A DNA stretch of 64,000 nucleotides from Candidatus Cloacimonadota bacterium (lineage in GTDB: Bacteria > Cloacimonadota > Cloacimonadia > Cloacimonadales > Cloacimonadaceae). The position numbers were made by a program, and so were the translations under genes. The stretch is taken from positions 886-64,885 of the forward strand of contig JAAYJN010000037.1 in NCBI GenBank assembly GCA_012522935.1, written 5' to 3'. The number at the start of each line of letters is the position of its first letter. Within the stretch, counting starts at the first letter, position 1. The notes below the pieces were generated by a model. The model saw nothing but the letters and a program-made list of their open reading frames with translations. It had not been told where the DNA came from and ran no database searches. This document shows positions 17,123-39,982 of this stretch, piece after piece.

Positions 17123-17474
17123 TGGTGGAGGTGGCGGGGATCGAACCCGCGTCCAAAAAACCGGCAACAGGAGAATCTACATGCTTAGTCGTCTTTAAGT
17201 CTTAAACCAAGTGGCAGAGACGATCAGACCCACCAGGTTCCAGCTCATAATCTTAGGCAATGCCTATGAGCATTAGCATTGCAGCGTCCGCACTGTTACG
17301 ACGTCTGTTTCAAATCCGGCGGCCCGAAATGGACAGACGTTAGCAGCTTATGCTGCTAAGAGTAAGTTGTTGTTTGCAGTTAATTTTGCAATTTGCTACT
17401 TTTTGACGGAGTGGATAGCATCTCCGGCATGCATCTTTTGCATCCTGATTTCCTGTCGAAACCATGTCACCCCC
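17123..17474 (-). ncRNA. ssrA: tmRNA (transfer-messenger RNA)
   Basis: The minus strand reads 5' GGGGGUGACAUGGUUUCGACAGG ... GGACGCGGGUUCGAUCCCCGCCACCUCCACCA 3'. The acceptor stem GGGGGUG/CACCUCC contains a G3:U pair, and a T-arm and CCA end are present. The internal tag frame is GCA AAA UUA ACU GCA AAC AAC AAC UUA CUC UUA GCA GCA UAA (..ANNNLLLAA stop). Confidence 0.95.
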
Positions 17475-17741
17475 ATATATACTTGTGAAAGAACAGATTA
17501 AATTGGGATTAAAAACAGATGCCCTGTATTTTCTTAAGACAATTTATGCGGATGTGTTTGGATGTCAAGGAAAAACTGAATGATGCCCGCTGTGTGAGCC
17601 TTGAGATGGGCTTTTTTCCCACTAATTACTCTAATTAAACGAATTTTAATAATTGAAAATAGACTTGGCAGTAGCGAAGCCCCTGTTCACTGGCACCTGT
17701 TCACTGACACCTTGGCGCTCCGCGCCAGCTCGCCTCCCTTA

Positions 17742-17896: not shown

Positions 17897-18784
17897 TCAA
17901 TCCTCTGAAAGTGTATTATCCGCATCTTGTTCTCTCAAGACTCTAGACATAAGCTCTTTAAGAGGTTTTTCTGAGGCCCTGTAATTTTTATTATTCAAGA
18001 AAAAGGAGAATCTCTTATGGGGATCAAAATATTGGAACGGTACACTGTTTTTGTTTAAAAGATCCTTTAAAGATTCTACTAATTCCTCACACTGCCTGAC
18101 GCTGACTTCCATAAGGAAATTTGGATATTTTCTTTTATGAAATGAAATAACGTTCCTGCTATTATATGTAAGAGCAATGTAGGCTTTGACATAATTAGCC
18201 CTTATTTGTTTAAATTCTTCTGCCAAAGCATTCATTACTGTATTAGATCCTTGTAGAACCCACTCATAATTCTTACCCCAATACTCTTCATTAACAATTT
18301 CTTGTTCTTCCTGAATATCAGGTTCTTCATAGACATCTAATACTTTTACAAAATTCAAAAGATAATCCTTATTTACTTTAATCAGTTCAACCTGAATTGC
18401 AATCAAGGGGAAATTCATGCTTAATAGTTGGATCACATTATAAAACCTTCTTGTAATTACTTCTGCAATCAGGACTGCATAATGTTGTCTTTGGGGATAC
18501 CTTCTCCTTTCTATGTCCCAATATTCCAAAGTTCGAATAATGTGAGATGGATCTGTGCTGCCTAACATTACTTCCACCTCATACATGGCATTTTGATCCT
18601 GGTCGAAGAGCAACATATCAAACCTTCCTCCGCTCGATTGCTTTTTTTCTCTTTTTAGAGGCTGCAGATTATCGGACAATTGCAGCATTTCAGGGTTAGC
18701 AAAAATTTGTTCCTGTAACCAATTCTCGTTTAATCCAACTGATCTAATCAAGTGCTTTGAATATTTTGTCAATTTTACAGCCAT
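17897..18784 (-). CDS. Hypothetical protein with restriction-endonuclease-like (PD-(D/E)xK / NucS-like) N-terminal core
   Basis: 295-aa ORF. GGRFDMLLFDQDQNAMYEVEVMLG (D56, E69, E71) resembles the GRxDLL..D..G...v.E.K core of NucS-type nucleases, but M replaces the K. It is AT-rich and lies 127 nt downstream of the helicase gene. Confidence 0.45.
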   Translation of the reverse strand: MAVKLTKYSKHLIRSVGLNENWLQEQIFANPEMLQLSDNLQPLKREKKQSSGGRFDMLLFDQDQNAMYEVEVMLGSTDPSHIIRTLEYWDIERRRYPQRQHYAVLIAEVITRRFYNVIQLLSMNFPLIAIQVELIKVNKDYLLNFVKVLDVYEEPDIQEEQEIVNEEYWGKNYEWVLQGSNTVMNALAEEFKQIRANYVKAYIALTYNSRNVISFHKRKYPNFLMEVSVRQCEELVESLKDLLNKNSVPFQYFDPHKRFSFFLNNKNYRASEKPLKELMSRVLREQDADNTLSED

Positions 18785-18911
18785 TGTTATACCTCGTTTT
18801 ATTGTATTTTTTCATGTTTAATAATATGTGTTATTTGAGTCCCAAGGGTTGATGTAACATCAACTCATTATTTTAAGGCGTATAGGAAATTAACATATTT
18901 TTCTCAAGTTG

Positions 18912-21032
18912 TCACTCAATGGGTGGTTCGAATCCAAATAATATTGCCTGCTCCTGGCTAATCTCAATTGGGGTGCTGTTTTTTAGTCTTGAAAGTATAC
19001 TGAATATAGCTTCATCCTTTAACCAATACTGTAGGTATTCATAAAGTTGCATATTGAGAGGCAAAAGCATTTGAAATAATGACTGTGATAATGCTTTATC
19101 AAACAGTTTAGGAAAAATAGATTCATATTCTTGAGGATTATCTGATAATTGATCCCAATGGACTGGAGAACTGACTACAATGGAGATGTCATTTATCTCA
19201 AAATTGCAATGGTTCTGAATCAAAGCAATTGCACGATTAACTAGCTGTCCTCCAAATGTAAAATAGCAAATGCTGTTATGTGATCTATAATATGGTATTG
19301 ATGATTCTTCTATATATTTTCTTAATGGAGTTCGAATAGTATTGAAGAAAACTCCTATCTTCTCTTCAAATAAATGATTGTAATTTCGATCTGAATTAAG
19401 AATCTTCCAAACATTATTAAGAATGAATGGATCAGCCATCCAGGTGCCACTATAGTAAGTAAAATCAACAGGTTTTTTCTTACTATCTGTCGGTTTCAAA
19501 TATATTACACTGGGCGTCAGGTTTTTTACTCTCCAATATCGTCCTTGAAATCGCACTACACAGCCTCTTCGCAACTTTAATAGATTGATTTCAGGCACTT
19601 CACCTAAGTTTTTTGATTCGTGGTTAATCTGAACATACCTTGAACCGAGGCTGATGTTGCCATAAATCATCCTAAGATCTTTAAGCTTATGCAATTTCTC
19701 GTATGCAGCATACCTATATTTGAAATCGTGTTTTTTTACATAGTCTTTCTGCTCCAGCTCATTCAGTAGCTCATCAATCGCCGACCTACATACATGTGGC
19801 AAGTGTTCTGTTAGGTCGTAAAAATGAGATGTTTTTAAGAATGATCCCTCGTCTGATGCTAATATGCTAAGACATTGTTGTGCAACAGATCCGTATAGTT
19901 CATAAGGTGCTTTTCTGGGCATTACACCCTTTACGGAACTATCTAATAGAACACAGAATTTTAACAATTCCAAGAAAACCGTCTTAATGTAATCAGGGAC
20001 TAGGCAAATAACATTGACTTTATTTGACCGTCGATTACCTCTGCCAATTCTTTGCATAAAAGATTCAACGCCATCTGGACACCCCCATATTATTACAGCG
20101 TCGATATCTCCAATGTCAATGCCCAATTCCAGTGTACTTGTTGCAATGCAAAGTGCTGATTTTGAAGATTCAAATTTTCTCTCTGTTTCAACCCTAACTT
20201 GTTGTGATAGGGAAGAATAGTGTACAAGGAGAAAAGGTGCAAGGATGTCTGAACTGCTGAGACTTGAAGACAAACGCTCACATTCTTTGCGAGAGTCTGC
20301 AAAGAGAAGAAGCTTTCGATTATTATTTTTCATTAAGCGTTCTAGCAGATACTGAAGTTCTGATAGGTGTCTAATGTGCCTTATCTCACAATCTATACTT
20401 CTTTCAGATGAATAGCTAAAGAAATCTGCTTTGTCTTCTGGACCCATTAGAAAATCTCTGACAAATGACACTTCTCCTACGGTTGCTGACAGAGCAGCCC
20501 ATTGAAGCTTATGACTTATTACAGATTGTAGCCTCTTTATCAATAAGGATAATTGTAGTCCTCTCTGAGTATTATACAAAATATGGACTTCATCTAGAAT
20601 AATGGCTTTCACATTGTTTAGACATTGGTCTTTCCTAAATAAAATAACATCAAGAGATTCAGGAGTAGTAATCAAGATATTTGGTAGTCTTTTTGTTTTT
20701 AGATCATCCCTGTCACCATGACGGATTCCAACATGCAACCCCAACGAAGTGAGAGGAGGATATAGCCGCTTAAAAAGATCGTTTACCAAAGCCTTAGTAG
20801 GAGATATATAGACAAGGAAGAGTTCATTTTTCACTACTGCGTAATGATAGTATCTACTAATTATCGGAGCAACAACGGCCTCAGTCTTGCCAGAACCAGT
20901 ACCTGATGAAAGTACAATATTGTCTCCGTTAACAAGTGGTTCTATAACATCCTGCTGAGATTGGCGAACAGAGGTGAAGCTACCGTAGAATGCTGTAGCT
21001 ACCTTCTTGTTTAATAGATCAACCGGAGTCAC
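18912..21032 (-). CDS. Superfamily-2 DEAD/DEAH-box helicase, Lhr/BrxHI-like
   Basis: Helicase motifs I SGTGSGKTEA, Ia SPTKAL, II DEVH, III SAT, V/VI TSTLELGIDIG and QRIGRGNRR all lie within the first 335 aa or so. About 370 further residues carry no motif I recognise. It overlaps the upstream ATPase gene by 4 nt. Confidence 0.85.
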   Translation of the reverse strand: MTPVDLLNKKVATAFYGSFTSVRQSQQDVIEPLVNGDNIVLSSGTGSGKTEAVVAPIISRYYHYAVVKNELFLVYISPTKALVNDLFKRLYPPLTSLGLHVGIRHGDRDDLKTKRLPNILITTPESLDVILFRKDQCLNNVKAIILDEVHILYNTQRGLQLSLLIKRLQSVISHKLQWAALSATVGEVSFVRDFLMGPEDKADFFSYSSERSIDCEIRHIRHLSELQYLLERLMKNNNRKLLLFADSRKECERLSSSLSSSDILAPFLLVHYSSLSQQVRVETERKFESSKSALCIATSTLELGIDIGDIDAVIIWGCPDGVESFMQRIGRGNRRSNKVNVICLVPDYIKTVFLELLKFCVLLDSSVKGVMPRKAPYELYGSVAQQCLSILASDEGSFLKTSHFYDLTEHLPHVCRSAIDELLNELEQKDYVKKHDFKYRYAAYEKLHKLKDLRMIYGNISLGSRYVQINHESKNLGEVPEINLLKLRRGCVVRFQGRYWRVKNLTPSVIYLKPTDSKKKPVDFTYYSGTWMADPFILNNVWKILNSDRNYNHLFEEKIGVFFNTIRTPLRKYIEESSIPYYRSHNSICYFTFGGQLVNRAIALIQNHCNFEINDISIVVSSPVHWDQLSDNPQEYESIFPKLFDKALSQSLFQMLLPLNMQLYEYLQYWLKDEAIFSILSRLKNSTPIEISQEQAILFGFEPPIE

Positions 21033-22216
21033 ATAGATTCCTGTAAAAGACTATCTAATGCTTCAACTACAGTTACAATGACCTTTCTAACTCTGTCTTG
21101 GATTCTTACTGAAGCTGCATTCCAAACGATTGACTTTAGCTGCGAATCCAGCATAACAGTATCTGGCTCCCAAGCGTATGCTATCCCATGTACTTCTAAT
21201 ATCAATAAAGCGAGATCTTCCATTTCAGATGTTTCTATGGGGCTCATTTCATACATAGGCAACTTATCAAATCTCGAATAATCAAAATCCCTTCTTTCCT
21301 TAAGGAACAATTCAGTTTTGCATTTATCCACAAACTCCGGAGTTACAGCGAAGAAGGTTTTACCAGGGAACGCCTTACCTGCGTAAAAGTGGAATAAGTT
21401 CCAAAAAGCAGCTTCCTTGTAATTAATGTTTTTAAGATTCGTAATTACGTCTTCAAATTCGTCAAATAAGATGACAAAACCATTTAATCCAGCTTCTTTG
21501 CAGAGAGTATTAATATCTCTAAGCAATGCCCAACTTTGTGCATGCCCACTTCTGTTCATTACAAAAACATCATCAGCGTAGAATTTCCTATCTGATCTGG
21601 GATCTCTAAATTTACTTCGCAAATCTGTAATCAGTGCTTTCAAGAGCAACTTTCGTTGGCTGTTGTAATCGTAAGGATGGTAAAACCAATCAGAGATAGT
21701 GTTTTGCACTGATTGTATTTTAGTAGACCATGCCCTAATAGCCACATACATTGCATCTGAATCTAAAACCTCAGAATGATCCCATTTGCCTTGACTACTC
21801 AATTTCTGAAAAAAGGGATTATCTGCAATTCCTTTATTTATCTCCTCTGTTAAGAAATCCATCAGCGGTGGCAACCCTTTTTCCCCAATCATGCCCGGGA
21901 CTTCTATATTGCGGCATACAGCCCCAATGATTTGGTCCATTCGATTAAATCTTACACCCGAATTTGCATCTAAGGTTACTAAGCTAACTGCATAGTTCTG
22001 TTCCAGGGCTTCTTCACGAATAAATTTGAGTAGGTGAGTTTTACCTGAACCATAATTAGCTTTAAGTAAAAGAGCTGTGCTATTATGAGTATTCAATCTT
22101 TGTCTCAGATCATTAATCTCATTCTTACGACCTACCGTAAAGTATCTTACGAATCCCTCAGGTGGAATGCCTTTACGAAGCGACTCGATAATCACTTGTG
22201 CCTTAATATTATTCAT
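21029..22216 (-). CDS. P-loop NTPase, BrxD/DUF2791-like (paralog 2)
   Basis: N-terminal VIIESLRKGIPPEG, Walker A NYGSGKTHLL and Walker B FVILFDEFED. It is a clear paralog of the upstream gene. Confidence 0.6.
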   Translation of the reverse strand: MNNIKAQVIIESLRKGIPPEGFVRYFTVGRKNEINDLRQRLNTHNSTALLLKANYGSGKTHLLKFIREEALEQNYAVSLVTLDANSGVRFNRMDQIIGAVCRNIEVPGMIGEKGLPPLMDFLTEEINKGIADNPFFQKLSSQGKWDHSEVLDSDAMYVAIRAWSTKIQSVQNTISDWFYHPYDYNSQRKLLLKALITDLRSKFRDPRSDRKFYADDVFVMNRSGHAQSWALLRDINTLCKEAGLNGFVILFDEFEDVITNLKNINYKEAAFWNLFHFYAGKAFPGKTFFAVTPEFVDKCKTELFLKERRDFDYSRFDKLPMYEMSPIETSEMEDLALLILEVHGIAYAWEPDTVMLDSQLKSIVWNAASVRIQDRVRKVIVTVVEALDSLLQESM

Positions 22217-22221
22217 CTTGT

Positions 22222-23493
22222 CTACTCGTTTCTTAGTCTCTCCATTATGTCGTCGTAAAGGATCTCCGAAGACCTTACTTCCCCTTCGAGGTGATCGTCA
22301 AAATCGGCTATCATAGATGATACCAATAGCCTCCAAAACCGTATCCCAGCCAAGTGTGAATGTTGTTGAAATAGCTCACGAACGCGTTTCTCTACATCTG
22401 AGTCTTGCGGTAACAGAGCATCGGAACTGGGAAATGCACTACGATAAATATTTTTGATCTTTACTGCAGCTTTCTGGTAATCTTCAAGAACTGTTTGTAC
22501 AGCATCCAGGTTCCAAATAGTATCCAGCGCTCTTGGATACTTATTATCATCTGGCTTACCAATTCTTCCTGATAACGCTCCATAAATAACTATTCCAAAC
22601 TTTGGATCTGAGTAGAAATCTGGTGTAGTGGCATAAATCATGAAAAGCCCGGGTAGGGTCTCAATATTGTTGATCAAGGATAACAAGTTATTATGTGCTT
22701 CCCTAAGGGTGGATTGACGCATAACAGAATAAGCCTGCTCAGCCTCATCAAAGAGTATTAACAACCCATTGTAGCCGGAAAGCCTAACAAATCCAGCCAG
22801 GGATTGTAGCATAATCTTAGCATTGTCTTTGGATACCAGTTTACTTACTCCGAATTTTTTTCTGTAAACCCCAATGCTGCCCTCACCACCGAACCACTGC
22901 AGAATCTCTCCTCTAGTTTGTTCGGTAATCGATTTATCTGGAGCTTCTGGTAAAAAAGTTTCCCAGTACTGCTTCACCATTTTTTTGAAGTCGATGTCAA
23001 TACCATGATCAGACATGAGTTTCTCGACAGCTTTTTGGTAGCCGTCGTAGTTCACTTCAGATCCAGAGCCATGAACTCCGGTTGATAGCCATGATAAGGA
23101 TTCACTGATCACAGTGCCAAATGGTGCAATCTCCTGGATAGTGTTTCCAGCATAATATGATGGTGTTGCAACCATTCTGACAATCGCCGCGAAAACACTC
23201 TGAAATTTATTCAGTGCTGCACTACTTTTTTCCAGTTCCACATTTGAAACCAAGCAGTTGTTTTGTAGGGCAACCTCCCTTAATAGCCTAAAGAAATGAG
23301 TCTTTCCTGATCCCCATTGCCCACTTACAAACCTGATAATCCCATGATTTTGCATACCGGGGAAATGTAATTTCTTGATCCCTTCGATTATCTTTTCATT
23401 TCCTACAGAATAAAGTTCTACTCCTCTCTGAGGAGGAATACCTGTACGAAGTGACTCAACGATCTGTGACGATAACGCATTATCGATATTCAT
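22222..23493 (-). CDS. P-loop NTPase, BrxD/DUF2791-like (paralog 1)
   Basis: N-terminal QIVESLRTGIPPQRG, Walker A GQWGSGKTHFF and Walker B LLILFDEAEQ. Its ATG overlaps the upstream stop (ATGA at 23490-23493). Confidence 0.6.
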   Translation of the reverse strand: MNIDNALSSQIVESLRTGIPPQRGVELYSVGNEKIIEGIKKLHFPGMQNHGIIRFVSGQWGSGKTHFFRLLREVALQNNCLVSNVELEKSSAALNKFQSVFAAIVRMVATPSYYAGNTIQEIAPFGTVISESLSWLSTGVHGSGSEVNYDGYQKAVEKLMSDHGIDIDFKKMVKQYWETFLPEAPDKSITEQTRGEILQWFGGEGSIGVYRKKFGVSKLVSKDNAKIMLQSLAGFVRLSGYNGLLILFDEAEQAYSVMRQSTLREAHNNLLSLINNIETLPGLFMIYATTPDFYSDPKFGIVIYGALSGRIGKPDDNKYPRALDTIWNLDAVQTVLEDYQKAAVKIKNIYRSAFPSSDALLPQDSDVEKRVRELFQQHSHLAGIRFWRLLVSSMIADFDDHLEGEVRSSEILYDDIMERLRNE

Positions 23494-24347
23494 GTTGTCT
23501 CCTTAAATATTATAAATCCAATGTATCCCCTGGAAGCCGCTCCAGCTAGGAGAACCCCTTGCCTTGTATCTTTAGTTTGTTGTAAGTCTATAAATTTACC
23601 GTCTACTTCATGAGGACCTTTTTCTGCTAAAGCAGATAAATCTGCTACAAATTCATCCATGCGAAATTCTTTATCCCTCTTCTTCAAGTTCTTAGTGATT
23701 TCTCTGATTGGGACGCTAGCCCCATCGCTCAGATGTTCTCTCTCAATAATCTTTTTGTATTGTGCTCTGATTTTTTTCAAGAAATTAGGACCATGAAACC
23801 TTCTGTCAAAAACACGTCTATATTCTATTCTAATTATTTCTATTACGGCTTCTAAATCAGCAGGTAGTTCAGCGAGCTTCCCTTCTAAATTGCTGATTTT
23901 AGCAGTACGCTTATTCTCATTAATCTCAATTTTGAAGAAACCGTTTTTAACGCTATATTTTGGGTGGGGGCTATTTTTATCAAGCGTAATGTTGGATGCC
24001 TTGCAGGCTTCATCGAATAAAGATGGATATCGTCTCATTATACGATCAGATTCTTCTTTAGCTTGCCTGTATGCTTCTTCAAGTCTCTGGATTTGCGTAA
24101 TCCCATCACTACGTAGCTTATTCAGTATTTTAGCCTCTTTCTCAGCAAGGTTTACAAAGTGCATTGACCATCCCTGTTCTAAGTATGAGAGCAAAGCTGA
24201 AATTAAAACACTCTTTTTCTGAGCTTCTTCTAATTCAAGTTTCAGCGTATTGCTTTTCTCCTGCAGTCGGCAATTTAACTGCTTCATGGATTCTATAATA
24301 TCCATGCTAAAGTTCATAATTTTCTCCATAACATAAGCTGTCCTCAA
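23490..24347 (-). CDS. Hypothetical coiled-coil protein, first gene of the island operon
   Basis: 285-aa ORF. The track starts at TTG 24347, but ATG near 24317 (MNFSMD..) preceded by GGAG is more plausible. The N-terminal half is charged and heptad-like (LKLELEEAQKK.., RLEEAYRQAKEESDR). I see no recognisable catalytic motif. Confidence 0.6.
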   Translation of the reverse strand: MRTAYVMEKIMNFSMDIIESMKQLNCRLQEKSNTLKLELEEAQKKSVLISALLSYLEQGWSMHFVNLAEKEAKILNKLRSDGITQIQRLEEAYRQAKEESDRIMRRYPSLFDEACKASNITLDKNSPHPKYSVKNGFFKIEINENKRTAKISNLEGKLAELPADLEAVIEIIRIEYRRVFDRRFHGPNFLKKIRAQYKKIIEREHLSDGASVPIREITKNLKKRDKEFRMDEFVADLSALAEKGPHEVDGKFIDLQQTKDTRQGVLLAGAASRGYIGFIIFKETT

Positions 24348-24635
24348 CTGTTAGTGTGACTCCAACTCTTTGTATTTTGGTATTGTAGATATGCTTTCTA
24401 TCGTCAATTCTAATATCATATTTATAAACTAACTCTCAATTGCAGGATTTTCATTTCTTCGATCCTTGTCAAGCGCAATTTTCATCAATATCAACTTTGA
24501 TATAGTCAATTGGGGCATTGTGAAGGTGTTATTAAGTCATAAATGAGTTCATATATTCCAAAACTGGATAAACAAAAAAGTGGAGAATAGTTGAATGGAA
24601 GGATTAATACAATGGTTGCCACAATAGCTAATAAT

Positions 24636-31569: not shown

Positions 31570-34466
31570 CTTTCGTCATCCAACAGGTTATTGATGTTCA
31601 TCACCTGATCATCGCTAAGGGTGCTTTGCACCTCCCAGAGCGTGAGCTGTGCCTCTTTGAGGGCACCGGTGTGGATGAGGCTTAAAATGTAATGATACTG
31701 TGCACCACTCTGGATGAGGGGATATTCCCTATACAACACTCGCACCCGCTTGAATGATGATATGGCGCGCGCATAATCTTCCTTCAGATAGTGCATTCTT
31801 GCCAGTTCATAATCTGCCTGTGCCCTGATATATTGGTTGCTCTGGGTATCCAGGATTTGATTTGCCATCATTGAGGATTCATCAAAGAGCTCGTTTTGGT
31901 TCAGGTAAACGATGCGGTTGATACGTGCCTGGGGATGATCCATCGCCATCTCCTTACCCAGGTCCCAGATCTCATCATAGTCTTTAAAATCGTTCTCTTG
32001 GGCGATATCCAAGAGGGCAAGCCAGTTGGCGGCAGTAGGTTGGATTTCATATAAAAGCAGGTACTTTTCCTGGGCAATATCCAAGTCTCCGGTGCTGTGT
32101 GCCAATTTGGCAAGGGAAAGCAGGCTTTCGGGGCTTTGAGTCTCTTCAAACACCTGTGATGCCAATTCCTCTGCTTCCTTTTGCTGGTTGAGCTGGAAAA
32201 GGGATTCTGCCATCAGCAAATCAAGCTCCGGCCGCTTTTGTTCAGGATAGCTCCTTCTCAGCTCCTCGGCTTCTTCCAACACCTGATCCCAATGCCCCAG
32301 GCTGGCATAGAGCTGGATGATAAGATAGTTAATTTCAAAGCGGATATATTCACTTTCAAAGGTATCCGCCAATCCAAGGAGATCGGCGATGGGGGAGATG
32401 TCGTCCATATTGTCCAAACAGAGCTGCAGCCCGGTAAAGGCATCCCTCAAAAGGCTCACTTCTTCCGGGGTGAATGAGGTGGTATTACGGAAGCGCACCA
32501 GGATATTGAGCCAATCGCTGAAGGATTGATTGTAGTCTCCCAAGTTGTAATTACAAAGAGCCACCTGAGCCAGCACAGAGAGGAAGTGATCAGATTCTGG
32601 ATAATCTTCCAAAAAGCGCTCATACAATTCCAACGCTCTGCGATAGGAGCCTCCCTGATAAGCAGCCCTGCCGGCTTGGAACAGATAGCTATCCACATTT
32701 GGATTCAATTGGGAAAGCGAGAGGAAGAGCTGGCTGGCTTCGTCAAAACGCTTTAAAAAATACAGGGTATAAGCCTGATAGCTGGTGCACTCCTGTCTTT
32801 GCACCTCAGAGGCGGCATGTTCCTCCGCCTGTTGATAGAGGCTGAGGGCATGGGCAAAATCCTTGTTGTTAAAGCTCACGCTGGCTTCCAAGATCAGCGT
32901 TTCAAAGTTGGGGGGATAATTTGCCAATTCTGCAAGCAGGATTTGCACTTCAGTAAAGCGATTGAGATAGTAAAGAGACTGCGCCTGTCTGAGCAGGATG
33001 CTATAGCTGTGATCATGGTTCAGGGCTATTGCCTGGAAGGAATCCAGCGCACTTTGGAAGTTGCCAGACATAAACTCCAATTCCCCAAAGTAGAACAAGG
33101 CATCTTCGCGATACATGGAATCAGGGTATCTATCCAAGAGCGCCTTCAAGTTTTGCTTGGCTCCAGCATAGTCTTTGGCTTCAAACATCAGCATGCCCAG
33201 CCAATAAAAAGCCCTGTCCCGATAGCGTCCGTTTTGATAGGTATTCAAATAACGGTTGTAATGCTCTTGGGCAAGGTAGTGTTGATTGATCTGGTAATAG
33301 GCGTCTGCAATGGAGATCTCCACGTCATCCAGCAATTCGGGAGAGAGCTCAAAGCGCCGCGCCTCTGCCCACAGGGTGAGTGCCTTCTCATAATACCCTT
33401 CCTGAGCGGCAAAGCTTGCCATCAGGATATGCTGTTGTCCACGATATTGAGATGGCAAATCAGCATTCATATAATCCTGCAAAAGCTTGTATGCCCTTGC
33501 CGGGTCACTGGCATACAGTATTTTGAGGTGTTCAAGGTAGGAGAGAACCTGTATCTCAGGTTCAGCCTCTTTCACCAGGATGCGAAACAGAGAATCAGCA
33601 GCAGCCACTTCGCCTTGTTTGAGATGCAGCAGGGCGCCATAGTAGCTGCTGTGAGACGATCGAGGCATTTCGTCCAAAAGAGCCTGGGCTTCGTGCAGAT
33701 TGTTCAAAGTGAGATTCTTACGCAGCAAAAGCAGCTTGATAGGCTCGGATTCCAGCTCCTGGGGGTCTTCTATTTGCGCAAGGAATTCATCCATCTCTGC
33801 AAAGCGTTGGTCATAAAGAAGGTGTTTGAGCCAATGCAGGCGATAGTTTGGACCGTATTCGTCATCCGCCATCCGGTACATTATCTGGAAGGCTTCATCT
33901 TCTCTTTGCAATAATATCAATAGCTTGAAGTAATCATACTTCATCTCTTTATCGTTGTCATCTATTGCCATTGCCTTTTTATACTCATGCTCCGCCGAAA
34001 GCAATTGCCCCAAATCACGATAGCATTTCCCACGCCAGAGATTACCCTGATACTGATAATAGGGATGTTCGGTAAAGCGCCCCAATTCCAGCAGCATGGA
34101 AAGGGCAGATTGCACGTCTCCCATGCCATACAAGCAGATCGCATAGTTGAGGTACACATCAGCCTTTATCTCGGTTTGCAGGGGCACAGTCATCAGCTCC
34201 TGATACATTTGGGCGGCTTCTTCCCACCTTGCCTCATTGAGCCAGATATTGGCATTGATATACAACAGATAGGGCATCTTGTCGCTATTGGGATAGGTCT
34301 GCCTAAAATACTCTATCTCTGCCATCGCCTCCTCAATATCTCCCATCTCGTAAAGCCTCACGATATAGGTATAATCATCTTGTTCCCTTAGTGACATGGC
34401 AAACACAGCAGATACAGTGGCAGCCAATATCACCGCCATCAACAATCGTTTTAGCATCGTTTTCAT
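31566..34466 (-). CDS. Large TPR-repeat protein (secreted or membrane-anchored)
   Basis: 966 aa with an N-terminal hydrophobic signal and many TPR-like repeats throughout (..AEALFYFGELEFMSGNFQSALDSF.. and similar). Confidence 0.8.
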   Translation of the reverse strand: MKTMLKRLLMAVILAATVSAVFAMSLREQDDYTYIVRLYEMGDIEEAMAEIEYFRQTYPNSDKMPYLLYINANIWLNEARWEEAAQMYQELMTVPLQTEIKADVYLNYAICLYGMGDVQSALSMLLELGRFTEHPYYQYQGNLWRGKCYRDLGQLLSAEHEYKKAMAIDDNDKEMKYDYFKLLILLQREDEAFQIMYRMADDEYGPNYRLHWLKHLLYDQRFAEMDEFLAQIEDPQELESEPIKLLLLRKNLTLNNLHEAQALLDEMPRSSHSSYYGALLHLKQGEVAAADSLFRILVKEAEPEIQVLSYLEHLKILYASDPARAYKLLQDYMNADLPSQYRGQQHILMASFAAQEGYYEKALTLWAEARRFELSPELLDDVEISIADAYYQINQHYLAQEHYNRYLNTYQNGRYRDRAFYWLGMLMFEAKDYAGAKQNLKALLDRYPDSMYREDALFYFGELEFMSGNFQSALDSFQAIALNHDHSYSILLRQAQSLYYLNRFTEVQILLAELANYPPNFETLILEASVSFNNKDFAHALSLYQQAEEHAASEVQRQECTSYQAYTLYFLKRFDEASQLFLSLSQLNPNVDSYLFQAGRAAYQGGSYRRALELYERFLEDYPESDHFLSVLAQVALCNYNLGDYNQSFSDWLNILVRFRNTTSFTPEEVSLLRDAFTGLQLCLDNMDDISPIADLLGLADTFESEYIRFEINYLIIQLYASLGHWDQVLEEAEELRRSYPEQKRPELDLLMAESLFQLNQQKEAEELASQVFEETQSPESLLSLAKLAHSTGDLDIAQEKYLLLYEIQPTAANWLALLDIAQENDFKDYDEIWDLGKEMAMDHPQARINRIVYLNQNELFDESSMMANQILDTQSNQYIRAQADYELARMHYLKEDYARAISSFKRVRVLYREYPLIQSGAQYHYILSLIHTGALKEAQLTLWEVQSTLSDDQVMNINNLLDDER

Positions 34467-37400
34467 GATGTGGTAAACCCCTGTTTGCTTTCTTTGAAGG
34501 GTAATATCATAAACACCGTAGTTCCCTCATTCTCTTTGCTTTTGATGGTGATCTCTCCACCATGCAGTTCTGCGATTCGTTTGGCGGTAGCCAAGCCCAA
34601 ACCCAACCCGCTGGAACGGTATTCCACGGTACCGGATTTGTGTGCGTATATTTCGTTGAGTTCATAAAACTTCCTGAACACATTTTTGAGCTGATACTCC
34701 GGGATGCCAATGCCATTATCCTGAACAAAGATAACCAGGCTTTCCCGGTTGTTTATCTTCTCTGTGGGGAATACAGAGCGTCTGGCACCGATCACCACCG
34801 TGCCAAAGTCGTTTGTAAAGCGGATGGCATTCAAGACAACGTTGTGCACCATGCGATGGATGGCTTCCCAGTTTGCATACAGTTCAGACAGATTTTCTTC
34901 CACTTCCAGCTTGATAAACATCTTGCGCTTGCGGGAGAGGATATCCACCTCCTGCTGCACTAGCTCCAAGATCTCATATATATCACAGGGAGCCTTGGTG
35001 AGGCTCTTTTGCAGGTTGTAATAATTCATGGTGCTGATATCACCACTGCTGATGATCAGCTTCCTCACGGAGGATTCCAACCTGGAAATCAAATCCTGCT
35101 TTTCCTCTTCATCAGCATACAGCCTGCGCTTGAGGCGTGAGACGTATCCCTGCAGCGTGGTGAGCGGCGTATTGAGTTCATGTGCCACAATCGCCATAAA
35201 TTCGTTTTTGAGGGATTCAAATTCGCTCAGCTCATGGCTCTTTTGGATCACCGCTTCATACTGGGTGGCGTTCTTGAAAGCTATTGCCACCTGGGCTTGA
35301 AAGAGGCTGAGGATATCTTCATTCAGATACATCTCCCGGCTATTCTCGCCCATATTATCAAAGTAAAGCCAGGCAATGGGCTGGTCGTTGATCAAGATGG
35401 GACAGCAGAAGATGGAGTGGATGCCATAATCCTGAACGCTGATGGAGTTTTTGAAGCTTTGGTCTTCCTGCGCATTATAGCTGATCACAGGCTTGAGGGT
35501 TGCCTGACACAGACCAATGGCTGTTTTGCTGATACCCGTCACAGTGGCAAGGGGTTGCTTGCGGTTATTCATCTGCACCCGGTATTGATTGTTGCCATCA
35601 TGATCCAGCCTGATCAGAAATCCACGTGTGGCATTGATAAAATCTATCGCTTTGGAGATTATTTCCCATTCCAGGTTATACATCTCCACGATGCTCATCA
35701 ATTCGTGCGAGATATGCATCAGCTCGTTCATCTTGCTCATGCGCATGGTGATCTGTTCATAATCATTGACGCGGATAATGAGGGCAGCCAAGTGCTGTTT
35801 GATATTGCGCATCAAGTTGATCTCATTGCGGGTATACTCCAGCTCTCCCTCGTCAAATACCAACAGATAGCCTATCCTTGAGGAGCCGGATATCAGGGGG
35901 ATGATCATGGCATGCACCCCCTGGATATTGGTTCCCACCAGACTGTCTGTGTTAAAGGCTCTGTCAATCAGAGGCTGCAGCTCCGGCGGAATCATCTCAT
36001 CTTCTGCACTGTTATAAGAGTGGAAACAATAGAAGTTTGAGATTTGTTCGGAATACGTCATCAGCTTGAAAGAAGCGGGGCAGAGCACTCTCTCCAAGCC
36101 TTTTTCGATCAGGAATTTCACCCTTTCGATGCTGTTTACATTCACGATGTTATACAGCAGCTCATTCCAGCGGTTGCGCAGGTCTTTACGGCGCGATGCC
36201 AGGGGCAGGGCATTCAGCTTTTTAAGGTTTTTGATGTTATAGTATGCCACCTGCAGATAGTTTTCCCTGTCTTCCTCTTCAATGCCATCGGTGATGCGCT
36301 CCAAGAGCTGACGGTATTCCTCATACTCGGTATTTGCCAAGGTATCCAGGCTCAGCTCGATTAGTATCTGCAGGCGTATCTGCCTCAGCTCCACTTCCAA
36401 TTGATAGTAAAGGTGCTTGGTGCATACTTCCAACAGCCGATTCACCCTGCGCAAGATACCTCTCAGGGGCTCTTCCGGATTCATCAAATCCAGCTTCACA
36501 ATCAAAATCAGCATCTTGGTTTCCCAATAGCGATAACGATTTTCACGGATGGGCTTCAAGGCGGAATCTGCCAATTCCCGTGCTTTTGCATATTCTTTCA
36601 AGCCATAGTAACAGCTCACCTGCAACACATTAAACACGGCAATGGCATAGTTGTTATTCACCTCTCCGGCAAAGAACATCGCCTGCTTCAGCTCTGCCTG
36701 GGCGGTATTATAATCACCGGCGCTCATCGCCGTGAGGCTGAGGATATTGTGGTAGAACTCCTCTTCATTGATGTGTTTATAATTGATATGCACGTTTTTG
36801 CGTATCAGGTGGTCCAGCCTTTTCAGGTTTGCCGTTTCGTGCAGGTAATAAAAGTAGGTTTTTACCAGAGGATTAATCTCATCGATATGCCCTTTGATCA
36901 GTTTTGGTTCTGCTTCACTGATAAACTGGTAATAATAGCCAAAGCCGCGGATCTTGCTTTTGGCAAGAGCCAGGTTGCGTTGAATGGCATCCAGATGCCT
37001 GGTGCTGCCCACAGAGGTGATCAAGTCCCGCGCTGCCAACAGATTCTTTTCCGCCAGCTCAAAATCCCCCATCTTGATATTGGTCTCGCCCTGATTGAGC
37101 TTGGCATGCGCCTGGGAGATTGTGATATTGAGCTCGGAACTGTATTTGTAGCCCAGGCTGGAATACTCCCGTGCCTGCAGGGTGAAGCCCTGTTTGAGAT
37201 ACAGGTCTGCGATATTATTGTAGATCAAGCCCAGATAGCGTTTGATATTGTGTCTTTTCCAGATGGAGAGGGCGATATTGAGGTGCTCCGTAGCCTCAGG
37301 GATATTCTTTTGGATGCTGTACAGCGCACCCAAATCGTTGTGCATGGCAGCCAGATATATCATTGCCTGATTATCGTGTTCGGGCGGTAAGGTGGCAAGG

Positions 37401-39982
37401 AATTCCTCAATTATCTTGATCGCCTGATCATATTCGTCCAAGGCAGACCAATACACTGCCAGCCTGTCTGTATATATGATTTTCAACTCCAAGGTGAGCT
37501 CCTTGGGGTCTATCATATCCAGGATTCTTTTCACCGCCTCATTACTCACCTGAGTGGCAATCCGGGAGAGATATAAAAGTGCCTGCACGCGCTGTTTGCC
37601 AGTTATTGCCAGCTCCAACGCCTTGTCAAACATCTCCTTGGCTTCTCGGTGAGATTCCGCCAATAGCTTCAGGGTGCCCAGCACGTAGTATTTCTCAAAG
37701 AATTCCGGTATCCTGTCAGCATTTTGCTCCACGAACCCAGCCTGCAGATAAAAGCCAATGGCCTCCGTTTTATCGTGGAACTTGCGCAGGTCCATCATGA
37801 TCTCAGAGGCGGGAATGCTCAGCTTGTCCGGTTCCTCTTCCGAGGGTGGTCCCAGCTCAAAATCTATCCTCAATACATTGATAATGGCGGCATAAGCCTT
37901 TTCCTGTTCAAAGTCATCGCTTTGAATGTCATACAGGCGCAGATAGTATTTGCGCTCACTCAGCAAATCTGCAGCGGATTGAGCGTTTTCAATCAGCCCA
38001 ATGCAGGTTTCTGCATCTTCCACCAATACATTCTCATAAAACTGCAGTACGCGCCTGGAAATCTCTGTATTGGTCTCCTGCGGGGTTTCATCCCAAAACT
38101 TCTGCCGCGCCTCCGGGAAGGTATAGTAATAGTGTTTTTCGCGCTTGATCAGGATTTCGTTATAAATGGCATCACTAAGGAGGGAATATTGTTCCCTGTC
38201 TCCCAGATTGAGGATATGCACTATCAATTCCCGGCTCAGCGGTGTGCGCACGTTTGACAGCATTTGCAGCTGTTCATAGCTTTTGGGCAGGAGGTGATTC
38301 ATGCGCAGGTAGATGGATTGCAGAATCTTGGGAGGCAGGCGGTAATCAACCAGATCAGCAGGGAATTTATATCCGTCATCGTCACTAATCTGTTTCTTCA
38401 GCACCAGATCCAACAGGATTTCCCGGATAAAATGGGGATTGCCTGCCGATCGCTTGTAGATGCTTTGGGACAAGCTGTCTGGCAATTGCGCCCCCAAAAG
38501 TCGGTTCATATATTCAATTGCTTCTACCTCTTTCAGCATGGGCACGTGGAGCAGGATGGTGTTTTGGATCTGTTGGATTTTATTAAAGTCGTTGCAGGAG
38601 AGCACCACTAAGATGCGCTGTCTGACGATGGTTTGGGCTAAGTAATTGATAAAATCTATGGTGTGTCTATGTACGTATTGGAAGTTGCGAACTATGAAAA
38701 TCAGTGGTTTCTGGTTTGACAGATCACCCAAGAGGTCGCGCACCGAGGCAAAGTCATCCTTCAATTCCTCTTGACTTTGGGTGATGCTCTTTGCCTGTTT
38801 CTCAGAATCGAAGAGGTAACTGCGGAATTTGTCCGAGATGTTTTTGAGGCTCTCAAAGCCCTCTATTTCCTCCTCCGAGAGCGAGCTGAGATACTCTTTG
38901 ATGAGGGCAAAGAACGCTTCATGATCCCGCTTTGTGCAGCTATAATCAAACAGGTAAAACTCTCCGCCCAAGAGGTGGTAACGGAAGAGGGAGAGGATAT
39001 TGTCTTTGCCCAAGCCATCTCCGCCAATCACCGAGATAATCTTGCCATTGCCTTGACGCAGGGCTGGCAGATAGTCCAAAAGCTGATGTGACAATTGCTC
39101 GCGAACGATATAGCTATTAAAGCGCAGGGTATTTGCCATCGACCAGGATACGGAGAATGGATAGCTGCGCTGGGAGATGCGATTCACATAGGCTATCAGC
39201 TCTTTTCCGCTGTGAAAGCGGTTGTCTGGATTGCGTTCCAAAAGCCTCAATATCAGCTTTTCCAATGCCAAGGGGATATCAGGATTGAGCTCTGAGGGGA
39301 AAATGGGGATAAAGTATTGCTGGCTGCCGCTCATCAAGGCGGAAATCTGGTCCAGACTGATGGGGAAGGTCCCTGTGCAAATCTTATATAGAATTACTCC
39401 CAAAGAATAAAAGTCGCTCTCCGGGGTGGCGCCTTCGCCCAGATATACTTCTGGAGCGATATAGGGCAGAGTTCCACTCACCAGATGGTTTTCCTTTTCA
39501 AAATCTATCTTGGAAAAACCGTAATCGATGAGCTCAACCTCCATTTTCCTGCCACTAAAACGATAAAGCACGTTTTCCAGCTTCAGATCTTTGTGCAATA
39601 TATTCTGTGTGTGCAAGGCGTGCAAAGCGTAGGCACACTGCACCACCAGGTTGTATATCTGATCCACCCTGCCCTTGCTGAACTGGAAATTGACCAAAGA
39701 GCTGCCCTCAAAGAATTCGCTGATATAATAGATATGGTCTGCCACATGCCCAAAATCCTCAATGTGGCTGAGGTTGGGATGATCGATCATCGTGATGCGA
39801 TGCATCTCTTCAGCACTGAATTTAGCATAAAGGTCTTCAGAGGAGATATAGCGGAAAAGCTTGAGCGAATACAAGCGATCCGTGCGTATATCCCTTACTT
39901 TATACACCTGAGCCCAGGTACCAGTTCCCAGGATCTCCAGCACTTCATATCTATGATCTATATACATTGCGGCAATCTCCAT
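34463..39982 (-). CDS. Giant multidomain sensor: Ser/Thr protein kinase + P-loop NTPase (AAA_16/STAND-like) + TPR + GAF + histidine kinase (HisKA/HATPase_c)
   Basis: Kinase motifs are LGTGTWAQVY, ..SLKLF, HKDLKLENV, DYG and YIAPE. A P-loop VIGGDGLGKDN lies near residue 320, followed by a long TPR-like middle region. The H-box FMAIVAHELNTPLTTL lies near residue 1597 (nt about 35190). G-box SSGLGLGLATAKRIAELHGGEI lies near the C-terminus. Confidence 0.85.
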   Translation of the reverse strand: MEIAAMYIDHRYEVLEILGTGTWAQVYKVRDIRTDRLYSLKLFRYISSEDLYAKFSAEEMHRITMIDHPNLSHIEDFGHVADHIYYISEFFEGSSLVNFQFSKGRVDQIYNLVVQCAYALHALHTQNILHKDLKLENVLYRFSGRKMEVELIDYGFSKIDFEKENHLVSGTLPYIAPEVYLGEGATPESDFYSLGVILYKICTGTFPISLDQISALMSGSQQYFIPIFPSELNPDIPLALEKLILRLLERNPDNRFHSGKELIAYVNRISQRSYPFSVSWSMANTLRFNSYIVREQLSHQLLDYLPALRQGNGKIISVIGGDGLGKDNILSLFRYHLLGGEFYLFDYSCTKRDHEAFFALIKEYLSSLSEEEIEGFESLKNISDKFRSYLFDSEKQAKSITQSQEELKDDFASVRDLLGDLSNQKPLIFIVRNFQYVHRHTIDFINYLAQTIVRQRILVVLSCNDFNKIQQIQNTILLHVPMLKEVEAIEYMNRLLGAQLPDSLSQSIYKRSAGNPHFIREILLDLVLKKQISDDDGYKFPADLVDYRLPPKILQSIYLRMNHLLPKSYEQLQMLSNVRTPLSRELIVHILNLGDREQYSLLSDAIYNEILIKREKHYYYTFPEARQKFWDETPQETNTEISRRVLQFYENVLVEDAETCIGLIENAQSAADLLSERKYYLRLYDIQSDDFEQEKAYAAIINVLRIDFELGPPSEEEPDKLSIPASEIMMDLRKFHDKTEAIGFYLQAGFVEQNADRIPEFFEKYYVLGTLKLLAESHREAKEMFDKALELAITGKQRVQALLYLSRIATQVSNEAVKRILDMIDPKELTLELKIIYTDRLAVYWSALDEYDQAIKIIEEFLATLPPEHDNQAMIYLAAMHNDLGALYSIQKNIPEATEHLNIALSIWKRHNIKRYLGLIYNNIADLYLKQGFTLQAREYSSLGYKYSSELNITISQAHAKLNQGETNIKMGDFELAEKNLLAARDLITSVGSTRHLDAIQRNLALAKSKIRGFGYYYQFISEAEPKLIKGHIDEINPLVKTYFYYLHETANLKRLDHLIRKNVHINYKHINEEEFYHNILSLTAMSAGDYNTAQAELKQAMFFAGEVNNNYAIAVFNVLQVSCYYGLKEYAKARELADSALKPIRENRYRYWETKMLILIVKLDLMNPEEPLRGILRRVNRLLEVCTKHLYYQLEVELRQIRLQILIELSLDTLANTEYEEYRQLLERITDGIEEEDRENYLQVAYYNIKNLKKLNALPLASRRKDLRNRWNELLYNIVNVNSIERVKFLIEKGLERVLCPASFKLMTYSEQISNFYCFHSYNSAEDEMIPPELQPLIDRAFNTDSLVGTNIQGVHAMIIPLISGSSRIGYLLVFDEGELEYTRNEINLMRNIKQHLAALIIRVNDYEQITMRMSKMNELMHISHELMSIVEMYNLEWEIISKAIDFINATRGFLIRLDHDGNNQYRVQMNNRKQPLATVTGISKTAIGLCQATLKPVISYNAQEDQSFKNSISVQDYGIHSIFCCPILINDQPIAWLYFDNMGENSREMYLNEDILSLFQAQVAIAFKNATQYEAVIQKSHELSEFESLKNEFMAIVAHELNTPLTTLQGYVSRLKRRLYADEEEKQDLISRLESSVRKLIISSGDISTMNYYNLQKSLTKAPCDIYEILELVQQEVDILSRKRKMFIKLEVEENLSELYANWEAIHRMVHNVVLNAIRFTNDFGTVVIGARRSVFPTEKINNRESLVIFVQDNGIGIPEYQLKNVFRKFYELNEIYAHKSGTVEYRSSGLGLGLATAKRIAELHGGEITIKSKENEGTTVFMILPFKESKQGFTTS

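Follow-up and report, generated by a model that had tools for sequence, protein, structure and literature searches.

A four-gene cassette of paired BrxD-like ATPases and an Lhr-like helicase as a candidate anti-phage system in Cloacimonadota and other phyla

A 64,000-nucleotide (nt) stretch of DNA from Candidatus Cloacimonadota bacterium (assembly GCA_012522935.1, contig JAAYJN010000037.1, positions 886-64,885 of the forward strand; hereafter the window) carries a cassette of four genes, which encode a first component that we call P1, two paralogous BrxD-like ATPases (ATPase-A and ATPase-B) and a superfamily 2 (SF2) helicase, and these four genes are a conserved unit whose order and tight coupling recur in about 28 loci from more than 12 phyla. 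The original prediction, made from the sequence of the window, had described a stand-alone operon of five genes as a candidate undescribed defence system. What it had observed was confirmed as a whole, with minor corrections, and of its interpretation the protein families, the conserved synteny, the lack of fit to any named system and the fold of the fifth gene product stood, whereas the five-gene unit did not. Sequence comparisons suggest that the cassette represents a third, independent lineage of the module formed by a BrxD-like AAA+ ATPase and an Lhr-like SF2 helicase, the others being BrxD/BrxHI of type 2 BREX and SngB/SngC of Shango, and we consider it rather likely that this third branch is a mobile, autonomous and nuclease-free system acting against phages or other mobile elements.

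Results

The conserved unit

All five minus-strand open reading frames (ORFs) lie where the original prediction had placed them (Table 1), and the AT-rich island in which it had located them was borne out as well, with a GC content of 34-40% over approximately 18-25 kb of the window as compared with about 49% in the flanks. The cassette itself spans 18912-24317 on the minus strand. Its P1/ATPase-A junction reads ACATGA and contains the predicted ATGA overlap (23493-23490), and ATPase-A and ATPase-B are separated by the predicted 5-nt gap (TAG-acaag-ATG, 22217-22221). At the ATPase-B/helicase junction (ATGTGA), the start of the helicase overlaps the stop of ATPase-B, and the overlap at 21029-21032, described before as ATGA, is actually GTGA, the helicase start being GTG.

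A scan of the species representatives in GTDB returned 26 loci from many phyla, and further examples came from metagenomic contigs and cultured organisms. On all contigs with sufficient sequence, P1 comes first, then an ATPase of clade A, one of clade B and finally the helicase, with median junction gaps of -4, +3 and -4 nt and a maximum of 8 nt over 20 loci; the window contains all four components and has the spacing pattern of these 20 other loci (junctions of at most 8 nt). Collecting homologues to see whether the gene neighbourhood is conserved had been proposed with the original prediction, and the neighbourhood is strongly conserved, for four genes, in contexts that resemble defence islands. 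Carriers were found in Cloacimonadota, to which the closest relatives of the window cassette belong, and in Atribacterota, Chloroflexota, Nitrospirota, Planctomycetota, Acidobacteriota, Verrucomicrobiota, Cyanobacteriota, Thermodesulfobacteriota and other phyla. The cultured carriers are Aulosira laxa NIES-50 (plasmid3), Desulfomonile tiedjei DSM 6799 (plasmid pDESTI.01) and Dehalococcoides mccartyi (chromosome). The cassette genes of the first two carry the identifiers NIES50_70940-70970 and WP_014813311-WP_014813314, respectively.

Exceptions to the four-gene order are decayed copies. An Entotheonella locus (L030, 9815-13244), in which a P1-like gene is followed by an IS66-type transposase gene, was considered as a variant architecture and set aside as a remnant. 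The genes of L033 (10001-12819) are truncated and its helicase is lost, while L020 (12077-15344) and L028 (10722-11867) have fragmented ORFs with a split ATPase or helicase, which may be due to frameshifts or assembly errors. The decayed copies in general could have arisen by pseudogenisation, a frequent fate of defence genes, or they could reflect frameshift errors in metagenome-assembled genomes obtained from long reads.

The first component, P1

P1 is invariably the first gene of the cassette. It had been listed as a protein of 285 amino acids (aa) starting at the TTG at 24347, but the start is most likely the ATG at 24317 (MNFSMDII...), which has a GGAG upstream and gives 275 aa, the length of the orthologues; nearly all members of the family are of about this size. 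The AlphaFold2 (AF2) model of P1 (predicted local distance difference test score, pLDDT, 93.4; predicted template modelling score, pTM, 0.81) shows a long N-terminal helical hairpin (residues ~1-103), then a sheet of four strands accompanied by helices and, at the C-terminus, a helix-helix-hairpin unit resembling a winged helix. The earlier description as a coiled-coil protein leaves out the strongly conserved alpha/beta and winged-helix-like part that follows the N-terminal helices. Conservation rises from 0.47 in residues 1-45 to 0.80 in residues 196-271, the N-terminus being variable, and the invariant polar residues cluster in the motifs S-x-HP-x-Y, DE and LQQTKDT/RGYIGF.

The P1 family comprises 68 clusters at 90% identity in a collection of 5.8 billion proteins, and an exhaustive profile search among 1.84 billion representatives yielded 303 clusters at 50% identity. 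No match to P1 was obtained in Pfam, PADLOC, NCBIfam or PHROGs. Fold searches returned nothing significant, the best E-values being 0.34 in the PDB and 0.02 among viral models, the latter with poor TM-scores, and the P1 profile searched against PDB sequences found only keratin-type coiled-coil noise. The possibility that P1 is a cryptic relative of TerB proteins or of SngA, the first product of Shango, was rejected, as there was no TerB-family match at E <= 1 in Pfam or PADLOC and hhalign gave a probability of 0.4%.

The paired ATPases

The assignment of both ATPases as DUF2791/BrxD-like proteins in the original prediction agrees with our searches. PF10923 (BrxC_BrxD) matches ATPase-A with an E-value of 7.6e-47 and ATPase-B with 1.5e-21, and the best PADLOC models are BrxD followed by SngB in both cases (6e-36 and 1e-29 for ATPase-A; 2.5e-16 and 8e-12 for ATPase-B). 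Against the NCBIfam BrxD equivalog NF033438, which has a cut-off of 350 bits, ATPase-A scores 120.7 bits and ATPase-B 58.2 bits. The Walker A and Walker B motifs read from the sequence before are present in the translations (GQWGSGKTHF and LLILFDEAE in ATPase-A, NYGSGKTHL and FVILFDEFE in ATPase-B), and the common N-terminal motif ESLRxGIPP is real and conserved.

Motif conservation was assessed in 20 cassette loci together with two BrxD and three SngB sequences; the references were BrxD and BrxHI from the Polaromonas and Aulosira BREX-2 loci and SngA, SngB and SngC from the Klebsiella, Paenibacillus and Roseovarius Shango loci. The Walker A lysine, the Walker B Asp-Glu pair and the sensor-1 threonine (A/G-T-P-D/E-F) are invariant in ATPase-A, ATPase-B, BrxD and SngB. 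ATPase-A thus has K64 (Walker A), D249-E250 (Walker B), T290 (sensor-1) and a conserved R310, and ATPase-B keeps K59, the Walker B DE and the sensor-1 threonine. Downstream of sensor-1, an aL..R(I/L) motif is common to ATPase-A, BrxD and SngB, with the R310-type arginine present in 19 of 20 clade-A sequences (the remaining one has Lys), in both BrxD and in all three SngB. In clade B this Arg segment is deleted (19 of 20 sequences are gapped). Since the segment is kept in A and deleted in B with the ATP sites intact in both, the sequences suggest that an A-B assembly would be asymmetric.

Identity is 65% within clade A, 51% within clade B (a family of 688 clusters) and 22% between the two; A or B share 19-21% with BrxD and 17-20% with SngB, and all four groups stand at 17-22% from one another. 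In a neighbour-joining tree, which is distance-based and includes only the two BrxD and three SngB references, bootstrap support out of 100 was 91 for A, 100 for B, 88 for BrxD, 100 for SngB and 99 for the split between {A+B} and {BrxD+SngB}. On the strength of this clade structure, the A/B duplication is ancestral to the cassette lineage and specific to it, and the cassette would be a third branch of the module.

The helicase

The Lhr/BrxHI-like character of the helicase was likewise confirmed, its best PADLOC models being BrxHI (1.1e-86, residues 18-673) and then SngC (3.9e-75, residues 18-664). In Pfam, it matches DEAD (3.5e-29), Helicase_C (3e-18) and, weakly, WH_Lhr. The motifs SGTGSGKTEA, DEVH, SAT and QRIGRGNRR named in the original prediction are all there, and motifs I, II (DEvH), III (SAT) and VI are conserved across 20 loci, together with a BrxHI-like C-terminal region. 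Identity is 53% within the family, 25.5% to BrxHI and 24.7% to SngC, and the cassette helicases form their own clade with a neighbour-joining bootstrap of 100/100. By these comparisons, the ATPases and the helicase of the cassette appear roughly equidistant from BrxD/BrxHI and from SngB/SngC. The best NCBIfam match of the helicase is the ligase-associated DEXH helicase family TIGR04121 (217.9 bits, 1.7e-64), below its cut-off of 850, and Lhr itself (PRK09751) scores 103.9 bits against a cut-off of 1496.

The genes that follow the helicase vary. Directly 3' of it and on the same strand, SbcD/SbcC-type genes occur in a Cloacimonadales locus (L001, 15528-20440) and in a Dehalococcoidales locus (L018, 15618-18877), which could mean that the cassette inserted by chance beside sbcCD genes of the housekeeping kind, or that it has a functional tie to a nuclease of the host. 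In Dehalococcoides mccartyi (L047, 13334-15577), a 747-aa protein with a metallo-beta-lactamase (MBL) fold (Lactamase_B_2/RMMBL) is encoded 38 nt after the helicase stop, and this gene may be a lineage-specific nuclease add-on.

Gene 5, a separate passenger

Of all cassette loci, only those of the lineage to which the window belongs (L003/L004) have gene 5. It is missing even from close Cloacimonadota relatives, in which SbcCD, a convergent gene or cpn10 comes after the helicase. Its family is approximately 40-fold larger than that of P1 (~3000 clusters at 90% identity, against 68) and spans bacteria and archaea, and the relatives that were sampled are solitary and lie in unrelated contexts that lack a BrxD or helicase gene; HNH, Eco29kI-like, methylase or IS21 genes are at times found close by. 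Because gene 5 is absent from the other cassette loci and solitary elsewhere, we conclude that the system has four genes and that gene 5 is a separate passenger; the five-gene unit with an appended nuclease was rejected on the grounds of synteny and of the contexts of gene 5 itself.

An operon in which gene 5 serves as the nuclease effector of the ATPase-helicase machinery is accordingly most improbable, although the arrangement in the window speaks for it at first sight: gene 5 is co-directional, begins 127 nt downstream of the helicase (a spacing that had been measured correctly) and within the one AT-rich island, has an N-terminal domain of nuclease fold whose acidic residues are invariant, and could be seen as one of several lineage-specific add-ons after the helicase, such as the MBL-fold gene of D. 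mccartyi, whose position is analogous, and the SbcCD genes of L001 and L018. In addition to its absence from all other cassette loci, close Cloacimonadota included, gene 5 is not translationally coupled. The 127-nt spacer holds a 9-bp hairpin (GGGTTGATG-TAA-CATCAACTC, 18846-18866) and a Shine-Dalgarno sequence of its own for gene 5, and a promoter-like TTGAGA-18-TATTAT lies at 18967-18938, inside the 3' end of the helicase gene; hairpin and promoter-like site fit a separate transcription of gene 5, with scans for such elements not above chance. The appeal of the original prediction to the logic of an NTPase, a helicase and a nuclease working together does not apply to a conserved unit that has no recognisable nuclease.

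The restriction-endonuclease-like core that had been recognised in gene 5 is present in its AF2 model (pLDDT 86), in which an N-terminal PD-(D/E)xK domain with an alpha-beta-beta-beta-alpha-beta core and conserved acidic residues is followed by a C-terminal YdhG/DUF1801-like domain. Foldseek retrieved EndoMS/NucS (5gke, E 3.4e-4, probability 1.0, 24% identity over 101 columns) and the BspD6I subunits (probability 1.0), on whose catalytic domain and subunits, respectively, the N-terminal domain superposes. It differs from them in having a Glu (E-V-E) in place of the canonical Lys of ExK, and in the type of its C-terminal domain. Residues D56, E69 and E71 are invariant in 40 sequences. Gene 5 is therefore a predicted member of the PD-(D/E)xK superfamily, one for which no sequence match was found in Pfam, NCBIfam, PADLOC, PHROG or the PDB. 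With 40-50% identity across phyla of bacteria and archaea, the family is unusually well conserved for one that is unannotated, and gene 5 could act on its own, as a defence system of one gene or as a selfish element.

Neighbourhoods and mobility

Of the 28 loci whose flanks could be used, at least 13 have recognisable defence or mobile-element genes beside the cassette, an association that is qualitative. BREX-class genes adjoin it in five of the 28. In the chromosome of a Cloacimonadales bacterium (L001/L006), a complete-looking BREX-1 lies directly upstream and P1 overlaps brxL; on Aulosira plasmid3 (L039, 1-11094), PglZ, BrxD and BrxHI of a BREX-2 are followed after 172 nt by the cassette, so that the two modules stand back to back; in Atribacter (L007), convergent genes for PglZ (9e-244) and BrxC (E = 0) abut the cassette; in L025 (5688-9660), a full-length BrxL (PADLOC 3.5e-170) is found 2 kb downstream, beyond two uncharacterised ORFs, with no other BREX gene visible on the 10-kb contig; and in L017, HmaB/HmaC (a DUF1156 methylase and a DUF499 ATPase, BREX-related) lie upstream. 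In most loci, a range of 10 kb around the cassette is free of BREX genes, and the counts of BREX adjacency are lower bounds, as a local phmmer search with BREX seeds missed the BrxC and PglZ of L007, both of which PADLOC found.

Other neighbours include restriction-modification (RM) genes, namely a type I HsdR in L031, a type I RM system with McrBC in L045 and a type IIG restriction endonuclease-methyltransferase in L029, as well as PDC-S68 in L015, a DolB/PDC-M37B-like protein in L020, a PLD nuclease with DUF87 in L032, SIR2, methyltransferase and toxin-antitoxin genes in L033, a DUF1998/MZB helicase, a transposase and a GIY-YIG gene in L048, and PD-(D/E)xK and MBL-fold genes in D. mccartyi. 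On the complete 27-kb plasmid pDESTI.01, AbiE is the only defence neighbour.

These neighbourhoods raise the question of whether the cassette is a non-autonomous accessory, i.e. a helicase and loader serving a BREX-class or other RM system in cis or elsewhere in the genome, in the manner of BrxD/BrxHI in type 2 BREX. The five BREX-class adjacencies and the RM genes adjoining in L031, L045 and L029 could be read in this way, and so could the lack of an effector of the cassette's own; in the Cloacimonadales chromosome, the overlap of the P1 start with the end of brxL even implies co-transcription. However, the window has no BREX gene in its 64 kb, as is true of most loci within the shorter range given above, the complete Desulfomonile plasmid combines the cassette with AbiE alone, and the partners vary (BREX-1, BREX-2, Hma, type I, type IIG) in a manner that is better explained by co-location in islands. 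Moreover, the BREX-2 beside the Aulosira cassette already owns a BrxD and a BrxHI, and the related Shango module acts without BREX. We thus regard the accessory role as unlikely and prefer an autonomous cassette. The label stand-alone in the original prediction is too unqualified, as the five abutting loci show, although the window itself has no BREX core.

Close relatives within Cloacimonadota carry the cassette at differing chromosomal sites, which indicates that it is horizontally mobile, and it is also found on plasmids. A function outside defence, either in DNA repair or replication restart around an Lhr-type helicase or as a mobile-element initiator (ORC/Cdc6-like) with its helicase, seems quite improbable to us. 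It could draw on the top NCBIfam match of the helicase, a family of ligase-associated DNA-damage-response helicases, on uvrA as a neighbour in the window and SbcCD in L001 and L018, on the plasmid-borne copies and on the placement of BrxD-type ATPases in the ORC/Cdc6 clade in passages of a 2026 survey of BREX diversity (PMC12839542). Against this stand the score of the helicase far below the TIGR04121 cut-off, the rare and patchy distribution evident from the 303 clusters of P1, and the variable, AT-rich sites with recurrent RM, BREX and Abi neighbours, while uvrA and ssrA are merely the conserved flanks of the insertion, and no integrase, relaxase or replication-origin features travel with the cassette.

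The island and the rest of the window

The island is flanked by uvrA and the transfer-messenger RNA (tmRNA) gene ssrA on one side and by malQ/holA on the other (Table 1). The tmRNA gene, which the original prediction did not mention, sits between uvrA and gene 5. A core defence hotspot of P. aeruginosa is likewise flanked by ssrA (Johnson et al.). Integration of the island at ssrA by way of direct repeats was considered and rejected: neither boundary direct repeats nor an integrase were found at the window locus, and the island lies 5' of ssrA, the usual integration side being 3'. Tandem 14-nt direct repeats, GCCCCTGTTCACTG and GCACCTGTTCACTG, occur at 17679-17706 of the plus strand, within the 420 non-coding nt that separate gene 5 from the tmRNA gene. 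Upstream of P1, one weak promoter-like match was seen (24439-24412); the counts from promoter and terminator scans do not exceed those of shuffled sequences and are weakly informative.

Table 1. Features of the island and its ssrA flank (window coordinates)
Feature	Position	Strand	Description
P1	23490..24317	-	275 aa; ORF as listed reaches TTG at 24347
ATPase-A	22222..23493	-	423 aa, BrxD-like, PF10923, ORC/Cdc6-type AAA+
ATPase-B	21029..22216	-	395 aa, paralogue of ATPase-A
SF2 Lhr/Ski2-like DEVH helicase	18912..21032	-	706 aa, GTG start
Gene 5	17897..18784	-	295 aa, PD-(D/E)xK and YdhG/DUF1801-like domain, passenger
malQ-P1 intergenic region	24318..24635	-	presumed promoter region of the cassette
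tmRNA (ssrA)	17123-17474	-	ARAGORN; Rfam RF00023 178.6 bits, E 5.8e-72

Among the 41 other ORFs of the window, PADLOC and Pfam searches found no PglX, PglZ, PglW or TerB gene, as had been stated before, and no BrxC gene either. A second defence system or a BREX core outside the island was rejected as well, the only PADLOC matches there being generic ones, of UvrA to mad3/mad8 and of a Ser/Thr-kinase domain to mad6/PD-T4-6/MkoA. The latter domain occupies residues ~7-275 of a 1839-aa ORF (34466-39982, minus strand), with some 1550 residues beyond.

Discussion

Proposed function

Shango has been shown to protect E. coli and P. aeruginosa against phages (10.1101/2022.11.11.516204; 10.1101/2022.05.11.491447). 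Because of this precedent, together with the composition of the cassette, its mobility and its neighbourhoods, we interpret the cassette as an autonomous anti-phage or anti-plasmid system. The sequences directly show its gene content, strict synteny, translational coupling, intact catalytic motifs and clade structure, the loss of the Arg segment in B and the kinds of neighbourhood, whereas we infer that it defends its host, that its products assemble into a complex, what P1 and the helicase do, and that it works autonomously.

In the mechanism that we propose, ATPase-A and ATPase-B would form an asymmetric hetero-oligomer of the ORC/Cdc6-type AAA+ kind, in which B would probably depend on A in trans, since it keeps the residues for ATP binding and hydrolysis yet is without the Arg segment. 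This hetero-oligomer might act as an ATP-dependent switch or loader that places the helicase on foreign DNA or replication intermediates, and it is of relevance in this context that a helicase-loader role has been proposed for BrxD in the same 2026 survey (PMC12839542), in passages of which Ski2-like helicases such as HamB are also described as acting in defence. P1 may be the sensor or targeting subunit, taking the place of SngA in Shango or of PglW and the BREX core in type 2 BREX; its variable N-terminal helices would suit recognition, and its conserved winged-helix-like C-terminus would suit docking to DNA or to the ATPases. The helicase, as a putative 3'-5' motor of the Lhr/Ski2 type, could then disrupt phage replication or expose the DNA to host nucleases. 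For the host-nuclease variant, the SbcCD-type genes that follow the helicase in two phyla are the sole hint, and a weak one. More tentatively, and with somewhat less confidence than in the defence function as such, we speculate that the cassette embodies a new type of effector-less immunity, in which P1, with its unseen fold, would do the sensing and control an asymmetric A-B heteromer, B relying in trans on the arginine of A, that loads the Lhr-like helicase on phage DNA.

Several observations weigh against a defence function or against this mechanism. There is no recognisable nuclease, toxin or methyltransferase inside the cassette that could serve as an effector, and the analogy to BrxD/BrxHI and SngB/SngC carries little mechanistic weight. 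The arginine on which the presumed asymmetry of the ATPases turns, R310, is a candidate arginine finger, and the branch order of the tree depends on distances and on five ATPase references. Outside the island the window consists of housekeeping genes, the cassette of L046 is likewise embedded among such genes, and the link to defence neighbours is, as said, qualitative.

If validated, the cassette would be an additional defence system, found mainly in little-studied anaerobic and uncultured phyla, and the three cultured carriers, Aulosira laxa NIES-50, Desulfomonile tiedjei DSM 6799 and Dehalococcoides mccartyi, make it testable. The ATPase-helicase pair would change from a peculiarity of type 2 BREX and a part of Shango into an apparently ancient and portable engine with differing front ends, namely P1 in the cassette, the TerB protein SngA in Shango, and PglW with the BREX core in type 2 BREX; a BrxD-type loader and Lhr-type helicase would thus be plugged into at least three unrelated sets of sensors and partners, which would also provide a handle on the role of BrxD/BrxHI in Pgl/BREX-2. 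The duplicated ATPase, with the Arg segment in one copy only and both ATP sites kept, is a natural experiment on the mechanism of the pair, and the back-to-back modules of Aulosira are a natural system in which redundancy could be set against cooperation. From a methodological point of view, the window illustrates that co-directional genes in one AT-rich island need not form one system, and gene 5, as part of an independent, very widespread and unannotated nuclease-fold family, merits a study of its own.

Comparison with known systems

The genes of the cassette are labelled 'hypothetical protein', 'BREX system ATP-binding domain-containing protein' (twice) and 'DEAD/DEAH box helicase' by the Prokaryotic Genome Annotation Pipeline (PGAP). 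PADLOC-DB 2.0 (2023) contains neither a model for P1 nor a system into which the cassette would fit, and no name for the cassette was found in the literature searched on Shango, BrxD/BrxHI, DUF2791 and BrxD- or Shango-like systems. The passages searched in the 2026 survey of BREX diversity treat BrxD/BrxHI as specific to type 2 BREX and mention neither Shango nor the cassette (PMC12839542). That the cassette cannot be placed in Shango or type 2 BREX, as the original prediction had concluded, is consistent with our comparison, in which it lacks defining features of both.

Shango is similar in being a small, tightly coupled operon with a non-enzymatic first product, a PF10923/DUF2791 ATPase and an Lhr-like DEAD/DEAH helicase in the same order, and neither system has a nuclease or methyltransferase. 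The ATPases share the N-terminal G-x-x-P motif, Walker A and B, the sensor-1 Thr and, in clade A only, the R310-type Arg. However, SngA is a protein of 540-1050 aa with TerB_N, TerB and TerB_C domains, for which the references gave strong matches, whereas P1 has none of these and measures ~275 aa. Shango has a single SngB, while every cassette locus has two paralogous ATPases, the second without the Arg segment. Identity amounts to 17-20% for the ATPases and ~25% for the helicase, and both fall in separate, strongly supported clades. SngC is matched at the same gene position, but BrxHI scores higher and the cassette helicase has a clade of its own.

Type 2 BREX provides the best-scoring models for both enzyme types, BrxD and BrxHI, which are tightly linked there as an ATPase-helicase pair, and the cassette is sometimes physically attached to BREX loci. 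In contrast to type 2 BREX, PglX, PglZ, PglW and BrxC/PglY are absent from the window and from within 10 kb of most related loci, both ATPases score far below the cut-off of the BrxD equivalog and form separate clades, and the cassette has a duplicated ATPase and the extra P1 gene. Similarly, BrxHI matches the helicase over nearly its full length, but at low identity and from a separate clade. In Aulosira, the cassette lies beside a BREX-2 that has its own BrxD and BrxHI; since the two coexist side by side, the cassette and the BREX-2 dyad are not the same thing.

Lhr, the ligase-associated DEXH helicases and HamB of Hachiman share with the cassette helicase an SF2 DEVH core, a winged helix and an Lhr-type C-terminal region. 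The cassette helicase is far below the family cut-offs of Lhr and TIGR04121, the HamB models match its motor domains only (1e-12 to 1e-18), and no HamA-like nuclease partner is encoded in the cassette. The cassette is apparently unnamed. It has the two-enzyme engine known from Shango and BREX-2, but its ATPase is duplicated and differentiated and its first component is new. As the engine is otherwise common to these systems, we rate it as a variation on a known theme, one that is set apart by the ATPase duplication and by P1.

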